From a virus: a stretch of DNA of 53,692 nt. Location of the stretch: IMG/VR virus record IMGVR_UViG_3300050190_000114; one strand, 5' to 3'. How positions within the stretch are numbered: position 1 is the first letter of the stretch; each line of letters starts with the position of its first letter. A program made the translations under genes and the position numbers. The notes beneath the pieces were generated by a model, which ran no database searches, had not been told where the DNA came from, and saw only the letters and a list, made by a program, of their open reading frames with translations. Positions 7,033 to 33,227 of the stretch are shown piece after piece.

Positions 7033-7707
7033 ATGCGGGTTTACGAACCATCCTTCGGTGGAGTCATCAACGTTGACGCCACGCCTCTCTCTGAAGACCC
7101 CGACACCCAAGTAGCGCAAGTGATCGACATGATGGTCGATTACTCGGATGCGGATTCGTTCTCTCCCGAGATCCGCGCCGATGCGTTGCGAGGGTGTGCG
7201 TTAGGGAACGGGGATTGCATCGCCGGCAACTGGCAGGACGTGAAAAACTCGATCCGCTTTGTTCAGGACGAAGACACAGGGGAACCGTTCAGCGCCTGGC
7301 TGAAGCAAGCGCACGATGGCGACGGCGTGCCAGAGGTGCTTGTTCGTCCGGTGGACATGCGCAGAATGGCCGATCCGAAAGGGGATTGCGATTGCTTCTC
7401 GATGACGATGAGAGCTCGCTTGCTTGCTTTGGGAATTCCGGCCGGCTTCGTGACGGTAGCAGTGGATCCTGAAGACCCTGGCCGTTATTCGCATGTGTAC
7501 AACTTCGCGGATTGTTCCGGGGGTCAATGCGGGCCGAATTGGTCAGGACGTGTAGCGCTCGATACGTCGCATGGTCAGTATCCGGGATGGGAAGCTCCTA
7601 ACCCGTATGGGAAACGAGCGGAGTGGCCGCAATCGGGATGGAAAGTTCTTGGAGCTGTAGCTTTAGTAGCGGCTCTTGGGTTTGTTGCGTGGAGGGTGTG
7701 GGCATGA
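7033..7707 (+). CDS. Transglutaminase-like cysteine protease fold protein with a C-terminal TM anchor
   Basis: C-H-D pattern: GDCDCFSMTMRARLLALGIPAGFV, YSHVY, ALDTS. Hydrophobic C-terminus. Confidence 0.65.
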   Translation: MRVYEPSFGGVINVDATPLSEDPDTQVAQVIDMMVDYSDADSFSPEIRADALRGCALGNGDCIAGNWQDVKNSIRFVQDEDTGEPFSAWLKQAHDGDGVPEVLVRPVDMRRMADPKGDCDCFSMTMRARLLALGIPAGFVTVAVDPEDPGRYSHVYNFADCSGGQCGPNWSGRVALDTSHGQYPGWEAPNPYGKRAEWPQSGWKVLGAVALVAALGFVAWRVWA

Positions 7708-7907
7708 CGCATCCTTATATATTGGCCGCGTCACTGTGCCCGATCCGTGCGAACCATTGCGCGGCCGCAGAATACTCGGTCAGAATATCGAAAACAAGCG
7801 TTGCCCAACATTCTCAAGCGGCATTCTATGTTTCCGCGCTCCCGCAAGCCGGAAACCTTCCTTTGCTGGTCAACGGCGGTTTATCCACAGTCGAGGAAAA
7901 CCTGTGA
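7704..7907 (+). CDS. Bridge ORF A (sense ORF filling late cassette A)
   Basis: ATGA overlap with the upstream stop and GTGA overlap with the downstream start. L5 core at 7747-7764. L3 block at 7851-7886. Confidence 0.45.
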   Translation: MTHPYILAASLCPIRANHCAAAEYSVRISKTSVAQHSQAAFYVSALPQAGNLPLLVNGGLSTVEENL

Positions 7908-8554
7908 TACTCCCGATCACCTTAACCGGCAGGCTCGGGCTACCAGGTGGAGGTGTTCCCAACTTCGCACTCGATTCCCAAGGAAACGTAATCGGCGCCG
8001 AGTTCTGGCCTTCAGGATCAGACGCCAGTGGAGTGGATCCGGCAACCGGCGAACCGATGACCGCGGAATCCGGCAGCTCGTCACCGTTTACTAACGATGC
8101 CTCCGTGTGGACCGGAGAAACCCCAGGAGCCCCCAGCATCCTCGATATCGGCTCAAGCGTTCTCAACGTCGGATCGCGGCGCAACACCAGGGGTACGCAG
8201 TGGGACCGGATAGGATCGCAGCGAAGCGAATCGCAGTTTGATAAATGGCGAAGAGCAGGACGTCCGACCGCTTGCTCCAAAGGAATCGGCGATTACACAT
8301 TGTCGAACGGAATGCCGTGCGATCCAACCGTATACGGAGCCGTGCTGTGCCAGGACACAACGCAGCGGATTCTCAACGCGATCGCTGCAGGCGCGAGCGT
8401 AGCGGCCGGCACTCAGGTTCAGCCAGCATACGGAACGCCGGGATATGTCGGCACGCTTCCGCAAGTGGCAGTAGCAGGCTCAGCTTCACCTGGCGCATGG
8501 ATTGTTGGGATAGCAGCCGTAGCAGCAGTTATCTATCTGGTGAAGAACCGATGA
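7904..8554 (+). CDS. Late protein with a C-terminal TM anchor
   Basis: GTG start preceded by GAGGAA and the L3 block. Same frame as track ORF 7676..8554, whose N-terminal extension covers cassette A. Confidence 0.65.
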   Translation: MILPITLTGRLGLPGGGVPNFALDSQGNVIGAEFWPSGSDASGVDPATGEPMTAESGSSSPFTNDASVWTGETPGAPSILDIGSSVLNVGSRRNTRGTQWDRIGSQRSESQFDKWRRAGRPTACSKGIGDYTLSNGMPCDPTVYGAVLCQDTTQRILNAIAAGASVAAGTQVQPAYGTPGYVGTLPQVAVAGSASPGAWIVGIAAVAAVIYLVKNR

Positions 8555-9123
8555 ATCAGGTTTTGAATACAGGCGGCGCAGGCGGTCAAGGCAAACGGGA
8601 GCGCGGCGGCTGTGCTCGCACCCGGAAACAGAAGGTCACCGACCGGGCAAAGCGGTACCGGGCCAATCAACAGGCTTGCCGTCCATCCGGTTCTCGAGAA
8701 TGCGCCATCTGTGGTTCGACTCGTTTTCTAACCATCGACCACAAAGACGGTGACGAATCGAACGGCGCGAAATCTAACCTCCGCTGGCTCTGCAAATCAT
8801 GCAACACGCGGGAAGGGGCGAAGATGGCCAGAAAGGGCAAGGGCCGAAGAACGGCTCAGTACAACCCAGGCGCTCAATCGCTGGGCGAATACGTCAACGC
8901 CGTTCTGCAGCATACCCGCAAGGCGCATGACGAAGGCGGGCGCATCATCCACGAAACCCCGAAGTCTAAGCGCAGGGAATACGCTTCGGAAATCTGGAGC
9001 GCCCGTCAAGCGCGCGGCAACCCGCTGAAGAAGTGGACGCCGGCGACACTGAACGGCGCACGGGTACGGATTCGGGCGGTGGGCAAGGGGCTGCAGATTG
9101 ATCTCGGCAAGGTGGGGCGCTGA
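8551..9123 (+). CDS. HNH-motif basic protein in the structural module
   Basis: ATGA overlap. Motif CAICGS..LTIDHKDGDESNGAKSNLRWLCKSCN. The C-terminal WTPATLNGARVRIR segment is shared with the next protein. Confidence 0.6.
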   Translation: MNQVLNTGGAGGQGKRERGGCARTRKQKVTDRAKRYRANQQACRPSGSRECAICGSTRFLTIDHKDGDESNGAKSNLRWLCKSCNTREGAKMARKGKGRRTAQYNPGAQSLGEYVNAVLQHTRKAHDEGGRIIHETPKSKRREYASEIWSARQARGNPLKKWTPATLNGARVRIRAVGKGLQIDLGKVGR

Positions 9124-9536: not shown

Positions 9537-10252
9537 GCACAGTTCCACAATACGAATGGACCGGCTGGAGACGCACCGGCTATCAGATGCCTCACTGGGG
9601 ACTCTCCGGGAGTTCTCAGCAGGGAGACGCGAAAGCTGTAGCCGGATCATTGCAGCAGATGGCATCGGCAGCCACCAAGGCCGGCATCCCGATCGCGGGC
9701 GCAGTGTTGGAAGCGGGCGCCGCGCTGGCAAATATCGTCTCGCTGTTTGGCCCCAATCCAAACAACACCATCACAACCGAATGGGTAAACCAGATGGAAG
9801 CGGACGTAATGAAGCCGAACCTTGCAGCGTGGCAATCTCTCGCACCGGAAGAAAAGACACCCCAAGCTCAGCAGTACGCCCTGGAAGTTTTCAGCCAGGG
9901 CTGGAATCAGATCGTGCAATTATGCTCCAATCCCCAGCTCGGCTCGGCAGGATCAAACTGTCTGAAGGATCGGCAGCGTGGCGGTAAGTGGGACTGGTTT
10001 GGATACTACTACGATCCGATTGCAAACGATCCGGCAGTAGCGGCCAATGTCGCAGCGGCAAAAGTGGCGGCGCAAAGTTCCACACCGGGCGCACCTGTCA
10101 ACACTAGCACGCCGGGCTCGGCGGGCGGCAGCAACACCGCATCCGCTTCAGGCTCTACAACTGTTTCCAACTCAAGCACGAATCTCTACTTGTGGGGCGG
10201 GCTTGCTTTAATCGCTTTCGGATTGGGTTACGTCCTCACGGAGAACGACTGA
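9533..10252 (+). CDS. Late membrane protein (C-terminal TM, Ser/Thr-rich linker)
   Basis: ATGA overlap. C-terminal LWGGLALIAFGLGYVL. Confidence 0.65.
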   Translation: MSTVPQYEWTGWRRTGYQMPHWGLSGSSQQGDAKAVAGSLQQMASAATKAGIPIAGAVLEAGAALANIVSLFGPNPNNTITTEWVNQMEADVMKPNLAAWQSLAPEEKTPQAQQYALEVFSQGWNQIVQLCSNPQLGSAGSNCLKDRQRGGKWDWFGYYYDPIANDPAVAANVAAAKVAAQSSTPGAPVNTSTPGSAGGSNTASASGSTTVSNSSTNLYLWGGLALIAFGLGYVLTEND

Positions 10253-10935: not shown

Positions 10936-11459
10936 TGAGGGACTTCTCAGGCATGGGACAAGTCGGAATGGGGGATGCATCGTACGATTCCCTTGTCGCG
11001 GCCTTTGCGACTCGCGCGGTCGATCCGGCAGGCTTCGCGCGTATCCGCCCGGGCCGTCCGATTCCCAATCCTGAAACGTGCCTGAAGATCCAGTGTGGAG
11101 CGATTACGCAGGAAGAAGCCGGGATCGACCTCTTAGCCGATTGTTCGTTTGGAGGATTCGCCGGCGCGATGAGCTGCGCTTCGCCTCTCTGCGCTCCGTA
11201 TTGCGGATCAATGGCGACCGTTGCCCGAGCGTCCCAACCTTTACCCGTGGCGCCGCGTGTCGAGCAGATGTTCGTCGATGCGATTCAGAGGAACGGATGC
11301 GAGCCGGTTTATTGGGGCGCGAAGTTTGGCGGGCCGTATCCTGATTCTTCTCCGTGTGGATGTGGAGCGGGAGGGTTTATCAGGGAGCATCCGTTTGTAG
11401 CTGTAGCTCTACTTGGAGCGGCGGCTTATGGAATATACAGGTGGAGGGCCAGAAGATGA
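10932..11459 (+). CDS. Cys-rich late membrane protein (C-terminal TM)
   Basis: ATGA overlap. C-terminal FVAVALLGAAAYGIY. Confidence 0.65.
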   Translation: MMRDFSGMGQVGMGDASYDSLVAAFATRAVDPAGFARIRPGRPIPNPETCLKIQCGAITQEEAGIDLLADCSFGGFAGAMSCASPLCAPYCGSMATVARASQPLPVAPRVEQMFVDAIQRNGCEPVYWGAKFGGPYPDSSPCGCGAGGFIREHPFVAVALLGAAAYGIYRWRARR

Positions 11460-11542
11460 GGACTCGGGCTAAATTTAGTTGTTGGGCTCAACTGTTCTCA
11501 CGACTCCATGCTCGGCTTTGCGCGGCGGTGTTCTATGGATAG
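11456..11542 (+). CDS. Bridge ORF C (28 codons, L5 block only)
   Basis: ATGA overlap with the upstream stop. Its stop lies 5 nt past the downstream ATG 11535. L5 block at 11474-11526. Confidence 0.4.
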   Translation: MRTRAKFSCWAQLFSRLHARLCAAVFYG

Positions 11543-12149: not shown

Positions 12150-12313
12150 GAAAAGGCTTTCTGTATCGCACGATGATGGCGGCATTCCGGTTCCGACGTT
12201 GGACTCCGCTCGTTAAATTCGGCTTGTTCACATTGCTAGTCGTTTTCGCGCTCGTTTTCGCGCTGGAGACTTTGGGACTCTCAATCTTCTGGTTGAATGG
12301 AGGCGGGTTTTGA
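12146..12313 (+). CDS. Small TM protein (55 aa)
   Basis: ATGA overlap. Hydrophobic FGLFTLLVVFALVFAL. The 3' end contains a degenerate reverse R1-like GGTTGAATGGAGG. Confidence 0.5.
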   Translation: MRKGFLYRTMMAAFRFRRWTPLVKFGLFTLLVVFALVFALETLGLSIFWLNGGGF

Positions 12314-12531
12314 GCGCCATCATCAGTTTATCGAGTGGTCACGCGAAGGCGGATCTTATCTTGCAATTCGGAGTGGGTACCGAGAATCCAAGCGTGATGA
12401 TTATCAACCACGTGGGCGAAGAGACCATCGAATTCGGCGACATTCAGCGGTTTTCCGATGAAGAGTTGGAAGTAAAAGCCACCGCGCTTGGACCCAAAAC
12501 GAAGGGCAAGACTGCAAAGGCCAAATCATGA
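12310..12531 (+). CDS. Hypothetical small late protein
   Basis: The TTG start overlaps the upstream stop. Confidence 0.5.
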   Translation: MSAIISLSSGHAKADLILQFGVGTENPSVMIINHVGEETIEFGDIQRFSDEELEVKATALGPKTKGKTAKAKS

Positions 12532-12704
12532 AGAACCTCGGAGGCTACGGGTATCAATGGAGGCATTCCCCGGGATGCTGTAAAGCCGGAGCGATTGCAG
12601 CCGGAGACGTGAGGCCAGATTGTGAATCCTCATGCTGGTTTTGGATTCTCGCGTTAGGAGCGGTGGGACTGGCGATGATTCTTCCAAAAAAGGGGCAGAA
12701 GTGA
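12528..12704 (+). CDS. Small Cys-rich TM protein (58 aa, below the track cutoff)
   Basis: ATGA overlap with the upstream stop. Translation MKNLGGYGYQWRHSPGCCKAG..WFWILALGAVGLAMIL. Confidence 0.5.
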   Translation: MKNLGGYGYQWRHSPGCCKAGAIAAGDVRPDCESSCWFWILALGAVGLAMILPKKGQK

Positions 12705-13009
12705 AATCAGTTTTTGGGCTGATCGGGATGTTGCGGCTCTGTGCTCGGCATTGCGCGGAGGCGTTGAAATTCCGGTCCCCAGCGTTGCGCCAATTCAGGA
12801 ACAGAGCATACCGGGCATTCCGAACTCGTACGTATGCTGAATTCGCTGTGGCGATGAATTGTGAAGAATGCGCCACAGTCGGGACAGGTGACAGTTTCGG
12901 ACATTTCGGAAATGCGTCCGAGCATCAAGGCCTCCGCGCACTGATGGCCAGAATAGCAGAAATCTTCAACGGCGGTTTACCCCTAATCCCAATTGAGGCG
13001 CTGACATGA
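12701..13009 (+). CDS. Bridge ORF B (sense ORF spanning late cassette B)
   Basis: GTGA overlap upstream and ATGA overlap downstream. L5 block at 12711-12758. L3 block at 12967-12983. Same frame as track ORF 12632..13009. Confidence 0.4.
   Translation: MKSVFGLIGMLRLCARHCAEALKFRSPALRQFRNRAYRAFRTRTYAEFAVAMNCEECATVGTGDSFGHFGNASEHQGLRALMARIAEIFNGGLPLIPIEALT
12707..12928 (-). CDS. Antisense zinc-ribbon protein inside cassette B
   Basis: Pattern CPDCGAFF..CPVC. Its C-terminus RAMPSTEPQHPDQPKN is encoded by the reverse complement of the L5 block. Confidence 0.45.
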   Translation of the reverse strand: MMLGRISEMSETVTCPDCGAFFTIHRHSEFSIRTSSECPVCSVPELAQRWGPEFQRLRAMPSTEPQHPDQPKN

Positions 13010-13692
13010 TCTACCCCACCACTCTCAGCTCAGCGTTACGCACCTCTCCGAATCTATCCAGCCCTCTCTATCGCCGATGGTTTCCAGGTGCAGGACAAAG
13101 AGGCGGCGGATTCGCCGGTATGGGATTGTGCGACCCGGCATCGGATCCGACCTGCGGAGTAGTGGATGTAAGCACCGACCCAAGCATTACTCCGATTGTG
13201 GCAGTTCCCAGTAGCGATCCAGGCGCATCCCTTTATAGCCAGTTGATCGCCCAAGGAGTGGCGCCAGCCGACGCCTACCAATACGATCCAACAGGAGCTA
13301 TCGCGGCCGGCGTCGATCCAAGCACTTTGTATGCGGCGCCGGGCTACAACATCACGAACGTCACGCCCGGTACCGCCTTGACTCCCGCGCAACTCACAGC
13401 CCAGCAGGTAGCGGCGCAAGCGGCGCTTTTAAAGATGGTTCCCGCGGCTTCCAGCGCAGCACTCACAGCAGCGCAAATCGCAGCAGGGCTCACAACGGGA
13501 ACAGTTTCCCAAGTTGCTACGACAGTCTGCCCCAGCGGATACAGGTCCTCGACGGGCGCATGCGTTGCCGCAGCGGGCCAGTGGTTCTCTTTTGCCACGA
13601 ATGCCCAAGTGATGACCTATGGCGCCGTGATTCTCGGAGCGCTGGTTATCCTGCCGATGCTTTCGGGCGGCGGCGGAAGGCGGCGGCGATGA
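13006..13692 (+). CDS. Late membrane protein (C-terminal TM, CPSGY motif)
   Basis: Preceded by the L3 block. Motif VCPSGYRSSTGAC. C-terminal TM followed by RRRR. Confidence 0.65.
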   Translation: MIYPTTLSSALRTSPNLSSPLYRRWFPGAGQRGGGFAGMGLCDPASDPTCGVVDVSTDPSITPIVAVPSSDPGASLYSQLIAQGVAPADAYQYDPTGAIAAGVDPSTLYAAPGYNITNVTPGTALTPAQLTAQQVAAQAALLKMVPAASSAALTAAQIAAGLTTGTVSQVATTVCPSGYRSSTGACVAAAGQWFSFATNAQVMTYGAVILGALVILPMLSGGGGRRRR

Positions 13693-13961
13693 CAGCACCT
13701 ACTCCCATCACCATGACGCAGGCGCAACTCGACGCGCAGACCCAGAGCGGAGCATTGCTTGTGGTCGATCCAAGCATCTGCCCCTCTGGCTATACGCAAG
13801 CCATCGGTGGTTGCTTGGATACACCGGCACCCGCGGCGGGTCCCTCGATTACTACGTGGCTCATCGGGCTTGCAATCGTGGGCGGGCTCGCGTGGTACTT
13901 CTGGCCGCAGATCACTGCCCAAATCCGGGAATGGATTCCCAGTCTGGAGGCGCAGCAATGA
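13689..13961 (+). CDS. Small late membrane protein (CPSGY paralog)
   Basis: ATGA overlap. Motif ICPSGYTQAIGGC. TM segment WLIGLAIVGGLAWYFW. Confidence 0.6.
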   Translation: MTAPTPITMTQAQLDAQTQSGALLVVDPSICPSGYTQAIGGCLDTPAPAAGPSITTWLIGLAIVGGLAWYFWPQITAQIREWIPSLEAQQ

Positions 13962-14218
13962 AAGCTGTTGTACCTCCAGGCCGATTAGATATCCTCGGCC
14001 ACGAAATGTTGAAAGCGGGGCTGAAAGCAAACGGGGATCCGCTATTACGCATCGCCGAAAAGATGATGGAGAACCAGATCCGGCAAGCCTTGACGGAAAC
14101 GCTGGGACCCGGCACGAAGGCCGGCGAGTTCGCAATCAAGGCAATCAGCGCGGTGGAAGAATTCAAAAAGCGCTACCTGGAAGCGCAGGCTCAGATTCAA
14201 GCGGAGGATTCCGAGTGA
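13958..14218 (+). CDS. Small soluble late protein
   Basis: ATGA overlap. Helical-looking composition. Confidence 0.55.
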   Translation: MKAVVPPGRLDILGHEMLKAGLKANGDPLLRIAEKMMENQIRQALTETLGPGTKAGEFAIKAISAVEEFKKRYLEAQAQIQAEDSE

Positions 14219-14790: not shown

Positions 14791-14975
14791 AAGCTGCCGC
14801 GCTCACACCCGATACCGGATCGTCAACAATGACGCGGCCAATCACTAATCGAACCGGCATGGAGCCATTCTTCGAATTCCTGAACGCCATACTCTACGCC
14901 TTCGTTCAGATTCGAATCGAGTGGCAAGCCTTCAAATCGTATCGGCGGAACATTCCGCAAGGAGCAAGTTTATGA
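14787..14975 (+). CDS. Small late protein
   Basis: ATGA overlaps at both ends. Confidence 0.5.
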   Translation: MKAAALTPDTGSSTMTRPITNRTGMEPFFEFLNAILYAFVQIRIEWQAFKSYRRNIPQGASL

Positions 14976-22712: not shown

Positions 22713-22749
22713 ACGGATCCGGGGCAATGCTTGCAATTGCAGGCGATTT

Positions 22750-22786
22750 CAGGGCCGATCTTCGAGGGCGGCCCTGATTACTTTTC
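22750..22786 (+). terminator. Rho-independent terminator or attenuator after the capsid candidate
   Basis: Perfect 8-bp stem CAGGGCCG/CGGCCCTG with an 11-nt loop, followed by ATTACTTTTC. Confidence 0.6.
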
Positions 22787-22802
22787 AAGGAGACGTTTCG
22801 AG

Positions 22803-23402: not shown

Positions 23403-23404
23403 GA

Positions 23405-23839: not shown

Positions 23840-23845
23840 GGGGCG

Positions 23846-26026: not shown

Positions 26027-26029
26027 CCC

Positions 26030-27283
26030 ATGCCAGGCATGATCACAGCCCCAGCGGTGAAGATACTCTCAGCGCTCTTCGGTACAACTGGAGAGCTCTC
26101 TAATCCAGGAGGAGTTTTTCAACTGGGAAACGGAAACGCACTCTACATCCCGGTAACCAATCCCTGCGAAGGTAACGGGCTACAGCAGCTCTGGGCCGAC
26201 AATGTACCGCCTCCGCTTCCGTCGAACGCCCGGATGCTGAAATCGATCGACAACGGGGCAACCTGGGCGGAAATCGACGCAGCGCACGCGCCGGCAGTCT
26301 CCCTGACAAACCACACGGCCAACACCGGGGCCACAAGTCCGCTCACTGCGGTGCTTCAGGATGCCAATACCATCCTCGTGGCTTACGTCAAGTGGGATTA
26401 TCACTCAGCCGACGCGCCCGTCCTGGCGTTTTCCATCTTCCACATGGATACAGGGCTATGGGGGGCTGAAACCACCGGAGGGCCGGCGTTTCCTAATGCT
26501 TTGCAAGGCGGTAGCGGAAAGATCCACATGGCTTACCGCGCCACGGATGGTTCGGTGATCATCGCTTGGGCCGGCGTGCCGGAAACCGTGGGGGGCACAC
26601 CCTATCTCCGCATCTTCTATACGATCTATAACGCGGGATGGTCCGCGGCGGCGCCCATCGACGCAACGCAGACCGGCGCCACTCTGAATTACGATCTGGG
26701 GGGAGTTGTCTCGGGAACCGCCGGACGGTCGCATTTTTTCTATACGATTCAGAATCCCCCAGTATCGAACGCGGTGAATAGTCGAACGTTGAATGGGGCG
26801 AATGCCCTGCTTACGGTAGTGGTCGTCGCGCCGCTCGATCCGAGCGCCGGTATCAATTTCCCGATTTCGTATGCCGGGAACATCGGCGTAGCCTACATTC
26901 GCGGTTTTCCTGTTAGCTTTTTTTCCACTGCGGTCTCGGCCGATGTGCCTGTCTTTTCAGAACAAGCCTTGCCTAACATAGGCGGGAATCCGGGCGGCGT
27001 TGCGACGGTCTACGTATCCAGCAGCCTTGGTGGCGTCGACGGTGCAGGGCAAAATGCCTGGTCCAATCCGAGCGCTACAGCATTGGGATGGAGTGGGGTA
27101 ACATTCGTTTTTATGGCCGATCCGATGTTTCCGTCAACAAGCCCGACCGTTGGCTCCCCGATTTCATTAGGCATGGGGGTAGTAGTCACGGCGAATCTTC
27201 CAGGGGAAACGACGAACGATACTCAGCTCTACTTCTTTGCCTTTAGTCAAGGTGCCTGCCCAAAGAATGCGCAGGGAGTATGA
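26030..27283 (+). CDS. Asp-box (BNR) beta-propeller-like protein, spike or receptor-binding candidate
   Basis: Preceded by the L3 block and AAGGAG. Asp-box motif SIDNGATW. Repetitive beta-strand pattern. Confidence 0.55.
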   Translation: MPGMITAPAVKILSALFGTTGELSNPGGVFQLGNGNALYIPVTNPCEGNGLQQLWADNVPPPLPSNARMLKSIDNGATWAEIDAAHAPAVSLTNHTANTGATSPLTAVLQDANTILVAYVKWDYHSADAPVLAFSIFHMDTGLWGAETTGGPAFPNALQGGSGKIHMAYRATDGSVIIAWAGVPETVGGTPYLRIFYTIYNAGWSAAAPIDATQTGATLNYDLGGVVSGTAGRSHFFYTIQNPPVSNAVNSRTLNGANALLTVVVVAPLDPSAGINFPISYAGNIGVAYIRGFPVSFFSTAVSADVPVFSEQALPNIGGNPGGVATVYVSSSLGGVDGAGQNAWSNPSATALGWSGVTFVFMADPMFPSTSPTVGSPISLGMGVVVTANLPGETTNDTQLYFFAFSQGACPKNAQGV

Positions 27284-27291
27284 TCGGGTTT

Positions 27292-27441
27292 ATGAAAGTG
27301 CTTTTAGTTTGGGCTGAACGCGGATTGACGGGCCGTGCTCGGCATTGCGCGGTGACAGTCTCCGCGCGCACGACAATCGGAAACCTTCGCGGAATGTGCG
27401 ACGGCGGTTCACCACAAAGGCGGCCATGCTTACCAACATAG
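27292..27441 (+). CDS. Bridge ORF G (49 aa), minimal complete cassette
   Basis: L5 block at 27301-27352. Hairpin GCGCGG-N9-CCGCGC. L3 block at 27379-27413. Its stop lies 13 nt past the downstream ATG 27426. Confidence 0.4.
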   Translation: MKVLLVWAERGLTGRARHCAVTVSARTTIGNLRGMCDGGSPQRRPCLPT

Positions 27442-27989
27442 TAGACGGCTGGGCATTGAACCCCTCAATCAGATACTTACCCTACCGTGCGATCGCCATG
27501 CTCCTGGGGCAACTGGATCCCCTGAGGCGGGCGCACAACTACCGGGAGAGAATCTGGGTCTTGCCTGACGATCTGACAATTCCAATCCCGGCTCGAGGGC
27601 AGTTCAACCGGCAGATCCGTATCACGCCGAATTCGTATTTGTGGGGAGCCACCTGCTACAAGTTTACGGTGGAAGGCGGCCACTTCTTCGGAGTTGCGGC
27701 GCCATCGCTTCTTTCAATTCAGATCACCGACGATGCGACAGGATGTCAGTTTGGAAGCGAGTTCATCAACGCGCAGGCGGTCTATCCGCGGCCGGATGTT
27801 TCGGTTGCCGGGATCGTTCTCCCCTCGGGCTCGACGCCATGCCTTTTGACGCAGCCGCGGCTGTTCGTGAAACCGGGATTGCTTTCGGTGGAAATTGCAA
27901 ACCTGGATACGGTTCCTGTGAATTGCCAACTGGCGCTTTATTTTTCAGAACCGTGTGACATGATCGATAGAGGAGCTCAGTGTACGTGA
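27426..27989 (+). CDS. Beta-rich capsid-associated protein (187 aa)
   Basis: ATG follows the L3 block. C-terminal strands LLSVEIANLDTVPVNCQLALYF. Confidence 0.6.
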   Translation: MLTNIVDGWALNPSIRYLPYRAIAMLLGQLDPLRRAHNYRERIWVLPDDLTIPIPARGQFNRQIRITPNSYLWGATCYKFTVEGGHFFGVAAPSLLSIQITDDATGCQFGSEFINAQAVYPRPDVSVAGIVLPSGSTPCLLTQPRLFVKPGLLSVEIANLDTVPVNCQLALYFSEPCDMIDRGAQCT

Positions 27990-28117
27990 TGAAGCGGTTT
28001 ATAGGTTGGGTAGTACTGGCTGCTCGGCTTCATCGAAGTCTTTGCGCGGTGAGACGCGCTATCGGTGAAGCGGGTCGCAGACCAATTCGAATTCGGAAAG
28101 CCGGAGAGTGCCCATGA
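27989..28117 (+). CDS. Bridge ORF H (42 aa, L5 block)
   Basis: TGATG overlap upstream and ATGA overlap with the next ORF. L5 block at 27996-28049. Confidence 0.4.
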   Translation: MKRFIGWVVLAARLHRSLCAVRRAIGEAGRRPIRIRKAGECP

Positions 28118-28413
28118 TCGCCTATCACGGAACCACTACAGAACGGCTGCGATCCATCCGAGCGTTTGGATTACGTAAGGGCTCATGGTGTTCTTCGCTA
28201 AAATTGGTAGCGGAGCACTTCGCGGCCCGTCGCGCGGAATGGAACGGCGGAACACCTATCGTGATCATGATCGAGATCGAGCGCATCCCAACCGAGCGTA
28301 TGGACCGTTCGGACCGGCCAGAATTCCAACTGACTGCCACCGCGCTCCCCTCTACCTTAACCTTCGCGGACAGCACGACGGCGGTTTACCACCAAGAGGT
28401 TTCATGCCCCTAG
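28114..28413 (+). CDS. Mini ART-fold protein (Tpt1/KptA-like or diphtheria-toxin-like YHGT motif) in cassette H
   Basis: SD GGAGAG. N-terminus MIAYHGTTTERLRSIRAFGLRKGS. The L3 block (28359-28390) lies in its 3' end. The track ORF starts at GTG 28108. Confidence 0.4.
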   Translation: MIAYHGTTTERLRSIRAFGLRKGSWCSSLKLVAEHFAARRAEWNGGTPIVIMIEIERIPTERMDRSDRPEFQLTATALPSTLTFADSTTAVYHQEVSCP

Positions 28414-28985
28414 TCGAATCCTGCCTCTCCCTCCAAAACCGAATCTGGGAACAACCCAACGCCTTCAACCACTGCTTAAACCAGGAATGCCAACTCTGGG
28501 AACAAATCATCCTCCGCGGTGGACTCGAAATGGTCTGCCAGACCATGCGTAAAAAGCGCTACCTGAAAGCACCTTGGGTTGAAATGCCACCGGAGGGAGA
28601 GAGGCTGCAGAAAGTCGGATCGATCCCACTTCCGGCCGCGGAGCTCGTCGATACGCAAATTCTCGATTTCACCATGCCCATCGGATGGGATGGAGTCGGA
28701 ACCAATGTCATGATGACGGTCGCGGGTTCCGGTTTCGTCGAGGGCTCGGGCGACGTCATCTGGCGAATGCAGGTGGGTCAGCGCTGGATACCGGATTTCT
28801 CAAACGTGATCTTTTCACTTAACGATCTGCGAAACCCGCATGCGCTTGTAGGCGGGTACATCCGTTTGCTTTCCTTGCAACGGGTCCAAATCTTCGCAAG
28901 TTTGGGCGCCGGGGCGCTCGGGAGACTGGATCCTGCAGACCGGCTGAATGCGGCTGTAGTGGGATGGCAGTATCCAAAGAGGTAA
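28404..28985 (+). CDS. Beta-rich capsid-associated protein (193 aa)
   Basis: ATG follows the L3 block and AAGAGG. Motifs GDVIWRMQVG and AAVVGWQYPKR. The track ORF 28185 is an N-terminal over-extension. Confidence 0.6.
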   Translation: MPLVESCLSLQNRIWEQPNAFNHCLNQECQLWEQIILRGGLEMVCQTMRKKRYLKAPWVEMPPEGERLQKVGSIPLPAAELVDTQILDFTMPIGWDGVGTNVMMTVAGSGFVEGSGDVIWRMQVGQRWIPDFSNVIFSLNDLRNPHALVGGYIRLLSLQRVQIFASLGAGALGRLDPADRLNAAVVGWQYPKR

Positions 28986-28986
28986 A

Positions 28987-30033
28987 ATGCCGACGATTAG
29001 AGCCCCTAGGACGAATCGCAGGAGCCTCTGCCATGGTTTACTATGGCTAAAACAGGGTTCCAGTCGTTGGGCCGTGCTCTTGTGCGCCCTTCTTGCGGGT
29101 GGGAGCGCGGGGGCTTTTCTTTTCGATCCGTGCTGGAGGCTGGACAGGTGGGGCGGGAATGTCGAAGGTCATCAGGCGATGCTCTCGGATCAATCCGGCG
29201 ACCAGATCTCCACTGAAGTCGAACAGCAGATTATTTTTCTCTTCGCTGGCTTCGAACCGTTGGCCGCCCTTTTCGATTACGCCCCTCTTCAGCCGAACGC
29301 AAATGACTGGCATATCTGCCGTGCAAGCGCTCAACTCAGGGCAAACGACGGCCAGAGTCGCGCCCTTGTATTCGAACAGGTCTCCGATTCCGACCTCGAC
29401 CTCTCCGTACTGATCGCGCAGCGTCATGCTAGTCACGGCCTCGATTCCATTTGGCCCGTCGCAGATCATGCTTCCAGCCGTTTCAGAATCGCTTTTGTCA
29501 TCCGCCGATTGTACAATTTCCAGAACCAGTTTAACAGCATCGTTTTATTCTCCTGCCTTAGAGACGTGCGAAATGGTACCAGCGTGTCCGATTTTGGTTC
29601 TATTTCTTGCCCTAGGCCGTTGGTTCTACGTACCTACGGGATGAGGACCTTAGTTTGGGCTCGACATTCGACGCAGGCTCAGGATCGGCATTGCGCGGGG
29701 GCGGTCAATGCCTGGCAACCTCTAGCCGAGTTATCCGCTCACCCTGGCTGGCTAACCGCTGTTCGATGCGATCAAGAATCCCTTCGATGCGATCCAGACG
29801 GCGCGCGAAGTCATCCAGCCGCTTATTATTCGCCCACGTGCCAAAAAGAACGGCGATCACTATCGGCAGCGCGGTCGAAAGAGCGATCACTATCGGCAGC
29901 GCGGTCGAAAGAAAGGATTGCAGCATCGGATTGTTCACCCGTCAAGTATGCGCCGAATCAGCAGCGGGCGCAATACGCCACAGCGCACTTCAGTACTGAA
30001 ACCCTCGACCGACTGTCGAGCCCAACAACATGA
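28987..30033 (+). CDS. Bridge ORF I (349 codons, sense ORF spanning a 1-kb double cassette)
   Basis: ATG 1 nt after the upstream stop. ATGA overlap with the downstream start. Internal L5 block at 29649-29698, where an internal Met (29641) restarts the family N-terminus. Confidence 0.35.
   Translation: MPTIRAPRTNRRSLCHGLLWLKQGSSRWAVLLCALLAGGSAGAFLFDPCWRLDRWGGNVEGHQAMLSDQSGDQISTEVEQQIIFLFAGFEPLAALFDYAPLQPNANDWHICRASAQLRANDGQSRALVFEQVSDSDLDLSVLIAQRHASHGLDSIWPVADHASSRFRIAFVIRRLYNFQNQFNSIVLFSCLRDVRNGTSVSDFGSISCPRPLVLRTYGMRTLVWARHSTQAQDRHCAGAVNAWQPLAELSAHPGWLTAVRCDQESLRCDPDGARSHPAAYYSPTCQKERRSLSAARSKERSLSAARSKERIAASDCSPVKYAPNQQRAQYATAHFSTETLDRLSSPTT
29047..29469 (-). CDS. Antisense accessory protein (140 aa) in cassette I
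   Basis: Balanced protein-like composition. Codon-aligned antisense to the bridge ORF. Confidence 0.45.
   Translation of the reverse strand: MICDGPNGIEAVTSMTLRDQYGEVEVGIGDLFEYKGATLAVVCPELSACTADMPVICVRLKRGVIEKGGQRFEASEEKNNLLFDFSGDLVAGLIREHRLMTFDIPAPPVQPPARIEKKSPRAPTRKKGAQEHGPTTGTLF
29705..29938 (-). CDS. Antisense TM plus coiled-coil protein (77 aa) in cassette I
   Basis: Duplicated TM segment STALPIVIA x2, then the heptad-like LDDFARRLDRIEGILDRIEQRL. Confidence 0.45.
   Translation of the reverse strand: MNNPMLQSFLSTALPIVIALSTALPIVIAVLFGTWANNKRLDDFARRLDRIEGILDRIEQRLASQGERITRLEVARH
29853..29912. repeat. Perfect 30-bp tandem duplication (2 copies)
   Basis: GCGATCACTATCGGCAGCGCGGTCGAAAGA occurs twice back to back. 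This is 10 codons, so it is in frame on both strands. Confidence 0.95.
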
Positions 30034-31076
30034 AAACTCTCTTACTCGCACTCCTCATCATCCCCTTAGCCTACGCTCAGCAACTCCAGCCCGTCTCTAG
30101 CGTTCAAGCGGACTGCGGCAAATTCCTGCAACCGGCGATCACCACGGCGGGAACCTTCAACAGCGCGACGGTCGACAATCGATTCGCAGCGTGCGACGGC
30201 TGGGTAGTCACCTACTCTTCATTTGGCTTCGCTACGGTCTCCGTATTGCTTCAGAGCGCTCCTTTGACAACGGCAGGAGCGGCAGGAACCTTCGTATCGT
30301 TCGCCGGCACGATCGTAACCGGCTCAGTGAATCCCACCACGGCAACCAACCAGGGCGAGATTCGAGCTACCGGGTACTTTCCTTACGTGCGGGTTCAGAT
30401 CACCACCACGGGAGCCGGGTACTTGACGGCGGAATTCCACGGCTTCAAAACGAATCCAAATTCGGGAAGCGGAGCGCCGGCCGGAACAGGCTGCCCTAAT
30501 CCCTGCCCGGTAATCGGTCCCACTGCCTCAGGAAGCCCGCCTACGACTCCTCCAGTGCTGGTAGCAGGGCTCGATACGAATGCAGGTAATATCGAGCCAC
30601 TCCTGGTCGATTTCTTCGGGGGGCTGATACTAGGGGCACGAACTACCCAGCCACCCGATTTAGGAACCACAACCAGCATGCCATTCTTGCAATCGAGCAA
30701 CATGCTAGGGGGGATGGGTATTTACAGTTTGCCGATTATCACTACTGCGGATGGAAATCATTTTTCGCAAGCGCCAGGCGATGAAACACATGGACCTTTG
30801 GTACAACTCTCAGGCAATAGCGCGGTACGCTCCGCTCAGCAGGCAGTGACGAATGCGGCTGTGGCTCTGACTTCAGGAGCAGCGAAGAATATCTGCGTTA
30901 AAGGGCTTTCGACCAACACCGCATCGGTCTACATCGGTCCAACGGGAATTACGACGTCTACAGGAATGGAACTAGCGCCGGGAGACGCTTATTGTGGGCC
31001 AGTTTCGAACACCAATCTCATTTTCGTCATCGCGACAGCGGGAGGTCAGAGCATCTCATGGATCGCCACAAATTAA
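30030..31076 (+). CDS. Late protein with a Sec-type signal peptide (348 aa)
   Basis: N-terminus MKTLLLALLIIPLAYAQQ. Pro/Thr linker. C-terminal beta domain. Confidence 0.65.
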   Translation: MKTLLLALLIIPLAYAQQLQPVSSVQADCGKFLQPAITTAGTFNSATVDNRFAACDGWVVTYSSFGFATVSVLLQSAPLTTAGAAGTFVSFAGTIVTGSVNPTTATNQGEIRATGYFPYVRVQITTTGAGYLTAEFHGFKTNPNSGSGAPAGTGCPNPCPVIGPTASGSPPTTPPVLVAGLDTNAGNIEPLLVDFFGGLILGARTTQPPDLGTTTSMPFLQSSNMLGGMGIYSLPIITTADGNHFSQAPGDETHGPLVQLSGNSAVRSAQQAVTNAAVALTSGAAKNICVKGLSTNTASVYIGPTGITTSTGMELAPGDAYCGPVSNTNLIFVIATAGGQSISWIATN

Positions 31077-31594
31077 TCTGGCTGTTTCTTTGCTTCTTTG
31101 CTCTGACCGGCCAGGCGCAAGGGCCATCATTCGTCTCGCGTGGCAGGATAACGGGAGCGTTTACAATTGGAAATTGCGTGAAAGTCGGTGCCGCTGGAAG
31201 CCTCATCGACAACGGCACCACCTGTGCGGGAGCAGGAAGTTCTCAACTCCACTCCATAAGCTTCGTAATCGACGGCGGCGGCTCGGTCATCGTCCTTGGG
31301 GATGCGAAGGTCTACCCGACAGCGGATTTCACTTGTACCATAAACCGCTGGGATATCTCGGCTGATCAATCCGGTTCGATTACCGTGGATGTTTGGAAAG
31401 CGGCCGGGGCGATTCCGACTTCAGGCAACAAGATTTCCGCGTCGGCTCCGCTAACTCTCTCCACGGCGCAACTGGCGCAAAATGGTTCTAGATCAGGATG
31501 GACGGCGGCGGTTTCGACTGGGGATGTGTTTGGATTTTCGGTCGCAACGGCTACAACGGTAACACGGGTAACCGGGCAGATTTGGTGTCAGTGA
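31058..31594 (+). CDS. Late protein with a Sec-type signal peptide (178 aa)
   Basis: N-terminus MDRHKLIWLFLCFFALTGQAQG. Overlaps the upstream gene by 19 nt. Confidence 0.6.
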   Translation: MDRHKLIWLFLCFFALTGQAQGPSFVSRGRITGAFTIGNCVKVGAAGSLIDNGTTCAGAGSSQLHSISFVIDGGGSVIVLGDAKVYPTADFTCTINRWDISADQSGSITVDVWKAAGAIPTSGNKISASAPLTLSTAQLAQNGSRSGWTAAVSTGDVFGFSVATATTVTRVTGQIWCQ

Positions 31595-33102
31595 TGAAGG
31601 GATTGTTTCTTATTCTAATCTCTGCGCCGTGCTTTGCTGCCATATCGAGCAACACTGCCTGGGAAGTCCGCACGGTTTCGAGCGACACCAACGGCGGCGG
31701 CTTCGTGCAAGGCGCGACCGGGACGGACATGTCCCAGTTCAACAACAAGAACGCTGCGGCCTGCTCCTCTTGCCAATCCGCCACGGTCAACATTTCCACC
31801 ACTGACGCGGTAGCGATCGGAACAACCACCATCACCAGCATTACGGGGAATTTTTCAGCGGCCATCGTTGGAAACATCGTGGAGTTTTCCGGGGGGACGG
31901 GTAGCATTACAGCGGTTTGGAAGCAAGTGACCGCTTTCACGAACGCGACCACCATCACCATCGACTCCTCCATCGCCGCTTCCACCGGCATGACGATGAA
32001 CATCGGCGGCGCGCTGGCCACGATCGGCAAGGCCCTTGCGGTCATGACCGCGCAGAATATCATCTTCGTGAAGGCCACGGCTACCTATTCCATCACGGCG
32101 AATCTCACGCTCGCCAATCAGTTCACGCCAACCAATGCCGCACCGCCCAACCAACTCATCGGCTATACGACCAGCCGCACCGACACGGGCCGCGCGACGA
32201 TCCAACTCACAACCAACTCCAATCTCACGGCCCTCGACGGAACCAACGGGCAAGGATGGTGGATCAGTAATTTCGTGATCGACTGCAATAGCTTGACCGG
32301 ATCGCTCGGCGCGCGCATCAATTCGCATTCGGTGCTACGAAACCTGCTGGTGAAGAACTGCCTGGCTATCGGCGTCAATCTGGCCAACGGCACGTCCAGG
32401 CTGATGGACTCGGAAATCACCGCCAATACCGCAAGCGCCGGCAATGGCGCCGTGAATAGCGGAGGAGCTCAAAATTCCATCGAGCGCAACTACATCCACG
32501 ACAATACCGGATCGGGAATCGTGCTGGCGGGAGGCGGATCGATGGCCAGCTTCAACGTGATTGCGAACAATTCCGGCGCGTCGAGTCAGGGCATTTTGGT
32601 GAACAATTCAGGCATAAACGTCATTTTTAACAACACTATCTACAATAATGGTCAGGATGGAATCCAGTTCACTAATAACGCTTCGCTCGGGTCCGATTCA
32701 ACGGCGCGCAACAATCTGCTGATCTCCAACGCCCGCTATGGACTGAACGGCTACAACGTCAATCCAGGCTGGGGAAAGTTCCCGCAGTGGGACGGTAACG
32801 CTTATTTCGGGAACACGACAGCCGCAAGGAACAACGCCGACGATACAGGAACAACGAATCCGATCAACGCAGCTAACCCCTACACGAACACATTGGACGT
32901 GACCCTGACAGCGAGTCCGTTCACCAACGCCGGAACGCACGATTTCACTCTGAATTCCACGGCGGGCGGCGGGGCGGCGGCGAAAGGAACGGCTACACCT
33001 GGAGCGCTTCCGGGGCTTTCGCAGTCGGGCGCTCTGAGTTTCGGAGCGTTGCAGCAAGCAAGTTCCACCAGTACGGGATCGAATTCCGCTTTTGCGCAGT
33101 GA
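31594..33102 (+). CDS. Right-handed beta-helix (pectate-lyase-like) protein with a signal peptide, depolymerase or spike candidate
   Basis: N-terminus MKGLFLILISAPCFA. PbH1-like repeats (NYIHDNTGSGIVL, VIANNSGASSQGILV, NNTIYNNGQDGIQF, NNLLISNARYGL). Confidence 0.65.
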   Translation: MKGLFLILISAPCFAAISSNTAWEVRTVSSDTNGGGFVQGATGTDMSQFNNKNAAACSSCQSATVNISTTDAVAIGTTTITSITGNFSAAIVGNIVEFSGGTGSITAVWKQVTAFTNATTITIDSSIAASTGMTMNIGGALATIGKALAVMTAQNIIFVKATATYSITANLTLANQFTPTNAAPPNQLIGYTTSRTDTGRATIQLTTNSNLTALDGTNGQGWWISNFVIDCNSLTGSLGARINSHSVLRNLLVKNCLAIGVNLANGTSRLMDSEITANTASAGNGAVNSGGAQNSIERNYIHDNTGSGIVLAGGGSMASFNVIANNSGASSQGILVNNSGINVIFNNTIYNNGQDGIQFTNNASLGSDSTARNNLLISNARYGLNGYNVNPGWGKFPQWDGNAYFGNTTAARNNADDTGTTNPINAANPYTNTLDVTLTASPFTNAGTHDFTLNSTAGGGAAAKGTATPGALPGLSQSGALSFGALQQASSTSTGSNSAFAQ

Positions 33103-33107
33103 GTAAA

Positions 33108-33227
33108 ATGAGGGTTTGGGTTCAACGCGGATTTACGGGCCGTACTCGGCATTACGCGGCGACTATCTCCGCGCTCCCAGAGCTGGAAACCTTGGCATAC
33201 TGGTGGACGGCGGTTTACCACTTATGA
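33108..33227 (+). CDS. Bridge ORF J (39 aa), second minimal complete cassette
   Basis: Starts 5 nt after the upstream stop. ATGA overlap with the next start. L5 block at 33112-33159. L3 block at 33185-33219. Alignable end to end with cassette G. Confidence 0.4.
   Translation: MRVWVQRGFTGRTRHYAATISALPELETLAYWWTAVYHL

Follow-up and report, generated by a model that had tools for sequence, protein, structure and literature searches.

Repeat-bounded cassettes carrying mostly antisense genes keep an open sense frame in the rightward operon of an uncultivated soil phage

Introduction

Ambigrammatic narnaviruses provide the closest described parallel to the arrangement reported here. In Culex narnavirus 1 and its relatives, a reverse open reading frame (ORF) runs codon-aligned and stop-free opposite the real gene and avoids the codons UUA, CUA, and UCA; its product is not conserved as a protein, and ribosome association, or the act of translation itself, has been proposed as the benefit (PMC8316113, PMC8155312). 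We analyzed the genome of an uncultivated soil phage (IMGVR_UViG_3300050190_000114; 53,692 bp, hereafter the window), in which junctions between genes of a rightward operon hold cassettes bounded by a conserved 5' block (L5), a conserved 3' block (L3), or both. Most of the genes that they carry (cargo) lie on the antisense strand, and a sense ORF (the bridge) connects the stop codon of the upstream gene with the start codon of the downstream gene. As in the narnaviruses, the cassettes are codon-aligned and purged of three codons, and the bridge product is under no evident purifying selection. Unlike in these eukaryotic RNA viruses, where the reverse ORF covers nearly the whole segment, the ambigram does not extend beyond cassettes of 0.1-1.3 kb in a 53.7-kb DNA genome, and this genome encodes a DnaB-type helicase, HNH endonucleases, and DUF5131 instead of being an RNA genome that encodes an RNA-dependent RNA polymerase (RdRp). 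The roles are also reversed, the accessory gene being the real gene and the stop-free frame lying on the strand of the surrounding operon, and this frame is tied to its neighbors by stop-start overlaps and bounded by adaptor repeats. A first-pass annotation of the window, made from the sequence letters, named neither this parallel nor the GCGCGG and CCGCGC flanks described below.

Two groups of phage elements were compared with the cassettes in that annotation. The early promoter-stem-loop elements (PeSLs) of T4-type phages combine an early sigma-70-like promoter with a terminator stem-loop and are found in hyperplastic regions with co-oriented cargo (PMC2839356, PMC4122927). Like PeSLs, L5 and L3 are short intergenic repeats that flank non-essential ORFs and serve as breakpoints of insertion, deletion, or replacement; unlike PeSLs, they have no promoter or terminator pattern, lie inside a coupled operon, enclose mostly antisense cargo, and are read through by an ORF. 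The start-associated sequences (SASs) of cluster K mycobacteriophages are 13-bp asymmetric repeats with a Shine-Dalgarno core, located in one orientation upstream of gene starts and kept across subclusters before unrelated genes, and in about half of them an inverted repeat whose spacer varies lies upstream (PMC3203893). L3 is likewise an asymmetric 13-mer with a Shine-Dalgarno core at a short distance before starts. Its consensus, however, is ACGGCGGTTYAYC and that of SAS GGGATAGGAGCCC; L3 occurs mostly in the rightward late-type operon, whereas SASs are restricted to the non-structural arm; and the inverted repeats enclose 9 to ~700 bp including genes, in contrast to the 4-13 bp spacer of the extended SASs (ESASs). 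The bridging ORF and the antisense cargo have not been described for SASs. Both comparisons are therefore useful as analogies and do not extend to membership, because no sigma-70-type promoter or terminator was found in the blocks and the SAS sequence is absent.

What defines the morons of lambdoid and other phages is a promoter and a terminator of their own; they do not share a pair of bounding repeats, and they are not known to be selected for an open frame on the opposite strand. The cassettes resemble morons in being dispensable accessory genes between late-operon genes that are absent in some relatives, and they may likewise have expression signals of their own; a scan found no terminator of the cargo. 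Rickettsia palindromic elements are translated as in-frame insertions, and they and other miniature repeats (Correia and enterobacterial repetitive intergenic consensus [ERIC] elements) carry no genes. Short repeats, central insertions in some copies, and co-transcription with genes are features shared with these elements, and the open frame of the empty elements recalls those of Rickettsia. Unlike in miniature inverted-repeat transposable elements (MITEs), Correia, or ERIC elements, the outer inverted repeat (TTTGGGCTSAAC versus GTTYACCCCAAA) agrees at ~10/12 positions without covariation, and no duplicated flank was seen. Integron attC sites were rejected as a model: GCTCAAC in the first block of L5 fits RYYYAAC, whereas GTTTACC in L3 does not fit GTTRRRY, and no tyrosine recombinase domain was present among 35 window ORFs scanned against Pfam. 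No report of an ambigrammatic signature in a DNA phage was found in the limited literature collection consulted, and the combination seen here in a DNA phage operon, with the ambigram bridging neighboring genes, appears to be undescribed, although its parts have precedents.

Results

The sense frame across the cassettes is kept free of stop codons

The codons of the bridge frame coincide with those of the cargo, so that only TTA, CTA, and TCA in a cargo gene make stop codons on the sense strand. This codon-on-codon alignment was found for cargo genes A, B, C, D, and E of the window (Table 1) and for 17 cargo genes in relatives (each designated by L and a three-digit number), but not for cargo F. 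The bridge frame of 19 cassettes (3,190 codons) contained no stop, compared with 109 and 89 stops in the other two sense frames. The open lengths across five inserts, 102, 199, 230, 205, and 348 codons plus stop, agree with the 103, 200, 231, 206, and 349 codons of the first-pass annotation, which had also proposed that selection keeps the sense frame open. A null model of the codon-aligned antisense strand bears this proposal out. TTA, CTA, and TCA together make up 2.0% of the codons in 26 well-supported window genes, and their expected number in the cargo was computed from its Leu and Ser content. In 12 aligned cargo genes (1,420 codons; window and five relatives), 27.7 such codons were expected and none was seen (P=1.3e-13). 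The hypothesis had been formed on the window; for the seven genes from relatives only, the product was ~2.5e-8. In a second set, consisting of L161, L162, and the repeat-free L143, 20.5 were expected and again none was seen (P=2.7e-10). Cargo D by itself has 0 compared with 3.9 expected. Counted by gene, 22/22 cargo genes and 2/25 backbone genes lack all three codons (Fisher P=2e-11), and homologues of cargo B outside the clade contain 6 and 8 of them, one of these homologues at 63% GC. Comparably rare codons are used in the cargo (TCT 9, AGT 15, and CTT 19), and A-ending codons reach 15.2% in the cargo versus 18.2% in the backbone, so that neither rare nor A-ending codons are avoided in general. 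Outside the cargo, what remains of the two largest cassettes (23846 and 28987) was open in only 1.5% and 0.16% of shuffles, respectively. Our data thus demonstrate that selection keeps the sense frame free of stop codons.

The operon as a whole is tiled by sense ORFs, which leave three gaps (102, 13, and 27 nt; 142 uncovered of 27,201 nt), compared with 43 gaps and 2,711 uncovered nt on the antisense strand of the same interval and more than 3,900 uncovered nt in shuffles. Relatives were retrieved via backbone proteins of 417, 294, and 543 aa, and seven of them showed the same gapless tiling by sense ORFs, with an antisense strand that was not tiled. Each cassette examined in seven further genomes was bridged as well, in one case by a single frame across two cargo genes (Table 1). 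L161 and L162 together have eight L3-ending ORFs of 161-433 codons, which start beside the upstream stop and end on the downstream start; seven of the eight face a codon-aligned antisense ORF, and L162 7798-8283 has none. In L143, the region 12200-15065 holds the minus-strand genes 12641-12880, 13420-13647, and 14351-14677, which are covered by sense ORFs of 365, 148, and 251 codons without any L5 or L3. Bridging is thus the deeper (older or more general) constraint, for which the adaptors are the standardized solution of one lineage. The same architecture recurred in independent assemblies from ENA, JGI, NCBI, Logan, and IMG/VR.

The antisense cargo genes are real and the bridge polypeptide is not conserved

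Comparison with relatives established the cargo as real antisense genes, in line with the earlier remark that the better-looking genes of the inserts lie on this strand. Members of three cargo families (A, B, and C) were found again in relatives, with higher identity in the antisense than in the sense reading (A, 44-55 versus 30-43%; B, 65 versus 39%; C, 63 versus 42%). Homologues of cargo A in L144, L146, L148, L151, L152, L161, and L162 are all antisense, codon-aligned, and without TTA, CTA, or TCA. When six cargo-A genes were aligned codon by codon with their proteins as a guide, divergence peaked at the antisense third position (e.g., 0.32/0.30/0.48); this alignment supersedes a raw-alignment count of the window versus L144, which was flat (58/39/49). 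Cargo C shares 63% identity with L148 4203-4391(-) and 78% with L162 15373-15564(-). Two cargo genes matched described families: cargo B (25550-25972(-)) matched phrog_24928 (E=1.5e-14), and a cargo gene in L161 (7595-7993(-)) matched DUF1003 (PF06210; E=3.4e-24). Members of phrog_24928 are ordinary co-oriented early genes in three cultured phages, of Salinibacter, Paenibacillus, and Micromonospora. A PADLOC search of the cargo gave no defense or anti-defense match.

Cargo B is 65% identical to L148 8685-9143(-). An in-frame stop at 25550-25552 replaces a conserved Cys, and the homology with L148 continues for 24 residues beyond it to 25481. This stop either arose recently as a nonsense mutation or marks a truncation that is tolerated, and the sense bridge is unaffected. 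An extended -10-like sequence, TGTACAAT and TGATAGGAT, was noted by eye 6 nt before the start of cargo B in both the window and L148.

A mini-ORF upstream of cargo A is not codon-aligned, and the bridge frame nevertheless remains open across 29466-29540. It is conserved: mini-ORFs of 24-26 aa (M[LR]LINWFW.[VLA]YN[WR]R...) occur at homologous positions in L144, L148, L151, and L152, and they may encode a leader peptide or a small protein. Cargo F contains a 30-nt tandem duplication at 29780-29860, which is read as LSTALPIVIA twice in the cargo and as RSLSAARSKE twice in the sense frame.

The sequence of the bridge polypeptide is not conserved. In the homologues of cargo A, sense first positions (equivalent to cargo third positions) differ at 0.39-0.63, compared with 0.32-0.52 at backbone third positions of the same genomes. 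Four large bridge ORFs were searched against protein families without a match. L3 is read in different frames among its copies, and the first block of L5 in two (VWA or FGL). Selection thus acts on the openness of the frame rather than on the peptide. The 3' part of two bridges (L146 ~9560-9987 and L152 ~1300-1727) reads as a plausible sense domain (DPSWYSEENVK..LTNKPE.VSKLL...TNHLTRAERELLA), and the window gene 28114-28413 is, judging from its codon score (0.52 per codon), a probable sense cargo. Cassettes thus apparently mix sense and antisense coding segments in one continuous frame.

Structure of L5 and L3 and geometry of the junctions

The conservation of L5 and L3 noted in the first-pass annotation was confirmed by repeat counts, those of the second L5 block and of the L3 block being 8 to 100 times above expectation. 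The second block of L5 (GTGCTCGGCATTGCGCGG) has 10 matches at ≤3 mismatches (0.10 expected), the L3 block (RACGGCGGTTYACC) 13 (1.6 expected), and TTTAGTTTGGGCTSA 6 (1.8 expected). Repeat families D3, D4, D7, D10, D13, D17, and D18 place the blocks at the segments listed in Table 1, and the two minimal copies (27292-27441 and 33108-33227) can be aligned over their full length, as had been described, with 87% identity over 61 nt in addition to the L3 part. L5 consists of a start codon at or near the upstream stop, CTTTTAGTTTGGGCT, ~25-30 nt more, and GCGCGG, and contributes the start codon and an A/U-rich opening to the bridge ORF. L3 consists of CCGCGC, ~30 nt, and the 13-mer with a Shine-Dalgarno-like GGCGG or GGAGG, after which a stop codon overlaps or adjoins the start of the next gene. 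Since GCGCGG (or a close variant) closes L5 and CCGCGC (or a variant such as CAGCGC or CAGGGC) opens L3, as seen in 17/17 elements examined at both ends, the insert lies between short inverted repeats, and in empty elements the two motifs are 6-15 nt apart. The 13-mer is near-invariant across genomes with ~30% protein identity, and L3 forms a conserved block of ~65 nt at a fixed position ahead of gene starts even at this distance. The codons CTT TTA GTT TGG GCT of the first L5 block are identical across genomes with ~30% backbone identity, which points to conservation at the nucleotide and not the peptide level.

The core of L3 is GGCGG, GGAGG, or CGAGG; an ATG follows 9 nt after the GGAGG variants, and other copies have a second AAGGAG between the 13-mer and the ATG. 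From this core and the spacing of the following start, L3 looks like an extended ribosome-binding site and in this respect behaves like an SAS. Twelve L3 copies were found in the window, 9/12 of them within the rightward operon (7-34 kb). Each of these nine plus-strand copies, and also 4462(-), precedes a co-oriented gene, with a few to 25 nt separating it from the start codon, and no clear start follows 36823(-) and 39778(-). L5 or L3 copies beyond the range of the first-pass annotation lie at 3545, 4462(-), 36823(-), 39778(-), 40636(-), 42139, 43383, 43680, and 51097. The copy at 4462-4474(-) is a GGAGG variant 9 nt ahead of the ATG of 4180-4458(-), and that at 36823-36835(-) lies antisense inside ORF 36664-37107. 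A minus-strand L5 (40679-40630) and L3 (39790-39778) bracket the co-oriented minus-strand ORFs 40181-40642 and 39810-40181, indicating that the adaptors can flank sense cargo too. L5-like sequences of ~45 nt occur within early ORFs at 42126-42185, 43383-43426, 43680-43723, and 51085-51143 (ORFs 42084-42761, 43306-44283 [twice], and one starting at 51085), where they are read in the third frame as the repeated peptide ..L[GA]S[TA]V..S.SALRE[GQ]; such in-frame copies within coding regions recall the Rickettsia palindromic elements.

The blocks gave no support for a conserved RNA fold. Folds of single copies had z-scores of +0.63 and -1.78, no better than shuffles, and the consensus fold of 18 spliced elements was an invariant GCGC/GCGC stem of 8 pairs without compensatory change (covariation term 0.03). 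Pairings proposed by hand (the first block of L5 with the end of L3; GGTGAAC-GGCG-GTTYACC) were rejected because they were not kept across copies. No sigma-70-type promoter was found in L5 or L3, and the interval 20900-30100 contained 2 promoter-like sites (4.1 expected) and 8 terminator-like sites (9.9 expected). None of the latter coincides with a canonical block, the site at 29090-29113 falling on the diverged L5-like block of the 28987 cassette, and no T run stands behind the GCGCGG/CCGCGC stem. GGAAAC in L3 bears a possible resemblance to the -35 element of extracytoplasmic function (ECF) sigma-factor promoters.

The geometry of the junctions was inspected base by base at both ends of each segment. 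The bridge overlaps the upstream stop by ATGA or GTGA at 7704, 11456, and 12701; the junction at 27989 is TGATG, and the 25409 bridge starts with a GTG 6 nt inside the upstream gene. At 21043, 23846, 28987, and 33108, the bridge starts 2-9 nt past the upstream stop. The 22803 bridge starts 91 nt after the upstream stop, behind a terminator-like hairpin. The first-pass annotation had placed each sense ORF start at or within 8 nt of the upstream stop except at 22803. The hairpin (CAGGGCCG...CGGCCCTG followed by ATTACTTTTC; 22752-22790), which comes after gene 21981-22712, is the sole terminator-like signal spotted by eye inside the operon and is not listed in the terminator scan. Downstream, ATGA or GTGA overlaps with the next start were found at 7904, 13006, 21120, 28114, 30030, and 33224, the six that had been described. 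The 23846 bridge overlaps the next ATG (24531) by 8 nt, and the ORF through the 27292 element, with a possible start at 27280 in an ATGA overlap, stops 13 nt past the next ATG (27426). However, the 11456 ORF runs 34 nt past the ATG at 11508 into the next gene, farther than had been claimed for any sense ORF. Further corrections to that annotation are that L5 stands alone at 11456, L3 alone at 21043, and that the L5 at 23846 is degenerate. Both 27989-28413 and 28987-30033 are bridged, but neither is a simple segment, the former being a relay of two ORFs and the latter a composite.

Cassettes are insertions exchanged between junctions and phages

Comparison of junctions showed that the cassettes are insertions that have been exchanged between junctions and between distantly related phages. 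In the syntenic L143, genes abut at the positions of the 23846, 25409, and 27292 cassettes, and a 98-nt gap replaces the 22803 cassette; in L145, which lacks the element at the 27292 position, the homologue of the 27426 gene is preceded by an 8-nt gap. The location of cargo A varies: in the window it follows gene 28404-28985, in L148 it follows the counterpart of the 27426 gene, and in L144, L146, L151, and L152 it is flanked by the counterparts of genes 23405 and 24531. Cargo B precedes gene 26030 in the window and the homologue of gene 28404 in L148. The cargo at one junction differs between genomes and is bounded by L5 and L3. These presence/absence differences and shifting positions support the earlier description of the segments as a modular insertion platform. 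When the window is compared with L162, a distant relative, cargo A is 60% and cargo C 78% identical in amino acid sequence, whereas a backbone marker is only 29% identical, which means that the history of the cassettes is uncoupled from that of the genomes.

The cassettes were probably moved by homologous recombination via the common adaptors, and L5 and L3, by analogy with PeSLs, probably also serve as recombination handles (PMC2839356). No transposase or integrase was found. Invertible segments were considered and rejected, the orientation of the cargo being the same in all genomes examined, and an alternative genetic code, introns, and IS200/IS605-type ends were also considered and dropped. 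At a junction occupied by a cassette in other genomes, L149 has an ordinary-looking sense gene with a twin-arginine signal (2429-3061; MKQDRRGFLKLFG...), which makes this junction a hot spot for accessory genes in general.

Table 1. Cassettes, cargo genes, and other features of the window, and bridges in three relatives
Feature	Position	Strand	Description
Rightward operon	7033-34233	+	Near-gapless gene series, stops overlapping starts
Cassette 1	7704-7907	+	Bridge 67 codons; degenerate L5 7704-7764 ending CCATTGCGCGG; L3 7834-7885, 13-mer 7873-7885; upstream ATGA, downstream GTGA overlap
L5-only element	11456-11542	+	L5 11456-11525; 28-codon ORF; ATGA overlap on upstream stop
Cassette 3	12701-13009	+	L5 12701-12758; L3 12934-12981; bridge 102 codons; GTGA and ATGA overlaps
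L3-only element	21043-21123	+	13-mer 21092-21104; 26-codon bridge; ATGA overlap on next gene
Cassette 5	22803-23402	+	L5 22803-22863 (variant TGTGCTTGCCAGTGCGCGG); L3 23316-23380; bridge 199 codons
Cassette 6	23846-24538	+	Degenerate L5 23846-23904; L3 24464-24514; bridge 230 codons
Cassette 7	25409-26026	+	L5 25409-25472; L3 25955-26004; bridge 205 codons
Empty (minimal) element	27280-27441	+	L5 27292-27352; 9-nt loop; L3 27362-27413; ORF 49-53 codons
Cassette 9	27989-28413	+	L5-like 27989-28049; two-ORF relay 27989-28117, 28108-28413; L3 28340-28390
Composite cassette	28987-30033	+	Bridge 348 codons; cargo-A unit with diverged L5 GGGAGCGCGG; internal canonical L5 29638-29698; second insert without canonical L3, ending in inverted L5-start copy GTCGAGCCCAAC
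Empty (minimal) element	33108-33227	+	L5 33108-33159; L3 33169-33219; 39-codon ORF; ATGA overlap (33224)
Cargo A	29047-29427	-	126 aa (MTLRDQYGEVEV...)
Mini-ORF upstream of cargo A	29466-29540	-	24 aa (MLLNWFWKLYNRR...; MRLINWFW... in relatives); not codon-aligned
Cargo B	25481-25936	-	phrog_24928 member; codon-aligned
Cargo C	24110-24298	-	62 aa (MNVHTLNQPTVYELY...IDTRER); codon-aligned
Cargo D	22875-23288	-	137 aa; twin-arginine-type signal MDMDRREFFMALAG...; codon-aligned
Cargo E	12707-12928	-	73 aa; CxxC...CxxC, zinc-ribbon-like (weak zinc-ribbon matches); codon-aligned; no TTA/CTA/TCA
Cargo F	29705-29938	-	Membrane helix and coiled coil; weak phrog_1009 match; not codon-aligned with bridge
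Bridge in L146	8971-9987	+	338 codons
Bridge in L148	7875-9224	+	449 codons across two cargo genes
Bridge in L152	732-1727	+	331 codons
Ice_binding-like protein	20051-21034	+	Within rightward block
Right-handed beta-helix protein	31498-33102	+	Within rightward block
Second repeat family sites	2098, 3140, 35197, 37008, 37637, 38959, 41573	+	AGCGGACCTC family
Second repeat family sites (continued)	42690, 43560, 43950, 44530, 47209, 50345, 51010	+	AGCGGACCTC family

Discussion

We consider it fairly probable that these elements are portable accessory-gene cassettes placed between the genes of a translationally coupled rightward operon and that sense translation as such is selected. Ribosomes from the upstream gene would re-initiate in L5, cross the payload on the operon mRNA, and terminate in L3, followed by re-initiation on the next gene. 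Continuous sense translation could keep transcription and translation coupled, and Rho-type polarity or decay of a long untranslated stretch antisense to a gene would thereby be avoided. Codon alignment together with the purge of TTA, CTA, and TCA yields an unbroken sense ORF (or an overlapping relay) from the upstream stop to the downstream start, from which we infer ribosome traversal and its benefit, whether translational coupling, avoidance of Rho polarity, or mRNA protection. For the more specific proposal of a plug-in system for foreign genes in a clade of soil phages, with L5 as a re-initiation module, L3 as a termination/re-initiation module, and a backward gene recoded synonymously for read-through, the chances appear to us to be even.

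Several observations weigh against selection for sense translation in coupled cassettes. For most downstream genes, a separate Shine-Dalgarno sequence is present after L3, which may make strict coupling unnecessary, and the 22803 cassette comes after a terminator-like hairpin. The GC skew of the cassettes, considered as a mark of Rho-loading sites, is not distinct from that of the backbone. One cargo gene of L165 has three of the forbidden codons, and the only bridge across it consists of two overlapping ORFs in relay. L5 and L3 also flank co-oriented minus-strand genes at 39778-40679. Some bridge ORFs have sense-protein-like stretches (window 28114-28413 and the C-terminal part of L146 8971-9987), and several open with a signal-peptide-like sequence. 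Besides the two HNH endonucleases, no recombinase was identified.

The alternative that survives best, although we regard it as unlikely, is that sense translation is selected for another benefit, such as protection of the mRNA from antisense pairing and double-stranded RNA cleavage, ribosome shielding, or late interference with cargo expression. The avoidance of stop codons supports it equally, and the extended -10-like sequence 6 nt upstream of the cargo B start suggests that sense and antisense RNAs may coexist. Ribosome shielding is also the favored idea for the ambigrammatic narnaviruses (PMC8316113, PMC8155312). Sequence data alone do not separate these benefits from coupling or polarity; however, the precise stop-start geometry at both ends is better explained by a hand-over of ribosomes than by general shielding.

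True dual coding, in which the bridge ORFs encode functional (e.g., secreted or membrane-anchored) proteins and form antiparallel overlapping gene pairs with the cargo, seems somewhat less likely still. Several bridge N-termini (e.g., MKxLLVWAxLSITLCAC or KKIFRGWLLLFLALLGC) do look like those of lipoproteins or like signal peptides, protein-like sequence is seen toward the C-terminus of the L146 and L152 bridges and in window 28114-28413, and gene callers annotate the sense ORFs. Against this stand the sense first codon positions, which change as freely as neutral sites, the sense identity of 30-43% where the antisense reading reaches 44-65%, the lack of a family match for the four large bridge ORFs searched, the differing frames in which the blocks are read, and the nucleotide-level conservation of the first L5 block.

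It is improbable that L5 and L3 are primarily transcription signals (L3 as a late promoter and L5 as a terminator or processing site, comparable to the PeSLs of T4 or the RNase III sites of T7), with the open frames being secondary. The fixed position of the ~65-nt L3 before starts, even at 30% protein identity, its GGAAAC, and the potential of GCGCGG and CCGCGC to form a hairpin in empty elements would agree with such a role. However, the blocks contain no sigma-70-type promoter or intrinsic terminator, neither of which is enriched in 20900-30100, they have no Rfam match, and their consensus fold shows no compensatory change. Moreover, a promoter for each gene would leave the avoidance of stop codons without a reason, and L143 bridges its antisense genes in the absence of both blocks. 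Finally, ordinary shadow ORFs of GC-rich genes, with the repeats being chance or assembly artifacts, are refuted: long ORFs do exist opposite backbone genes (e.g., 21345-22529(-), 394 aa) and stops are sparser in the codon-aligned antisense frame (2.0% per codon) than in the other frames, but the joint probabilities given above hold even at this shadow rate, the backbone genes differ sharply from the cargo in forbidden codons, and both the repeat excess and the recurrence in independent assemblies argue against artifacts.

If the plug-in reading is true, the cassettes would be the first DNA-genome case of selection for translating an ORF whose product is irrelevant, and they would show directly, from genomes, that the need for unbroken ribosome traffic strictly constrains phage late operons. 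If ribosome traffic is what is selected, a long polycistronic message would tolerate antisense inserts only when they are translatable from end to end, and the role of polarity or coupling in shaping operons would become readable from genomes. Ambigrams, previously described only in a few eukaryotic RNA viruses, are extended here to DNA phages, and the complete absence of TTA, CTA, and TCA from antisense cargo is a signature that can be searched for in other genomes. The arrangement also suggests a design rule for inserting genes into operons without polar effects. In most cassettes of the relatives, gene callers pick the junk bridge ORFs and overlook the real antisense genes.

Genome context and other repeats

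The window carries an exact terminal direct repeat of 127 bp (1-127 = 53566-53692) and is thus complete as a genome, which was assembled as a circle or else has direct terminal repeats. Its GC content is ~56%. A nucleotide search of the window against 50,697 cultured-phage records gave no match, no tRNA genes were found in it, and an Rfam scan of the entire window yielded no family at the gathering score. A prophage search in GTDB genomes found none and hence gave no clue to the host. The distant relatives are 56-kb IMG/VR viral contigs. Scans of IMG/VR with the exact L5 16-mer and L3 14-mer returned only single, chance-level matches, and a longer L3 pattern occurred in multiple copies solely in the two IMG/VR relatives identified before.

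Proteins recognized in the window are a DnaB-type helicase, two HNH endonucleases, DUF3310, DUF5131, and a papain-like peptidase. Among the backbone proteins, just DnaB, Ice_binding-like, and Beta_helix matches were obtained in PHROGs, Pfam, and NCBIfam; every homologue of the 543-aa protein is without an assigned name, and an AlphaFold2 model of the 417-aa protein was unusable (predicted local distance difference test [pLDDT] score, 32). Domain hints, gene packing, and the IMG/VR origin of the relatives indicate that the rightward block is likely the late/virion operon of a phage. The HNH endonuclease genes lie at 347-1057 and 46333-47208, one with a helix-turn-helix (HTH) and the other with NUMOD4 and HNH_3; the two enzymes are conceivable drivers of cassette exchange, with which no link was found.

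Within the rightward block, the consecutive genes 18914-19693, 19706-20038, and 20051-21034 have a C-terminal module in common, with cross-hits in relatives too, and 112-nt repeats are located at 19414-19525, 19744-19855, and 20743-20854. A second, unrelated repeat family consists of AGCGGACCTC, 18-40 nt, GAATTCAAAC, and AGGA and ends directly at the starts of early or replication-side genes (Table 1). AGCGGACCTC has 20 matches at ≤1 mismatch (4.5 expected), and this family looks like a separate start-associated or promoter element of another gene class.

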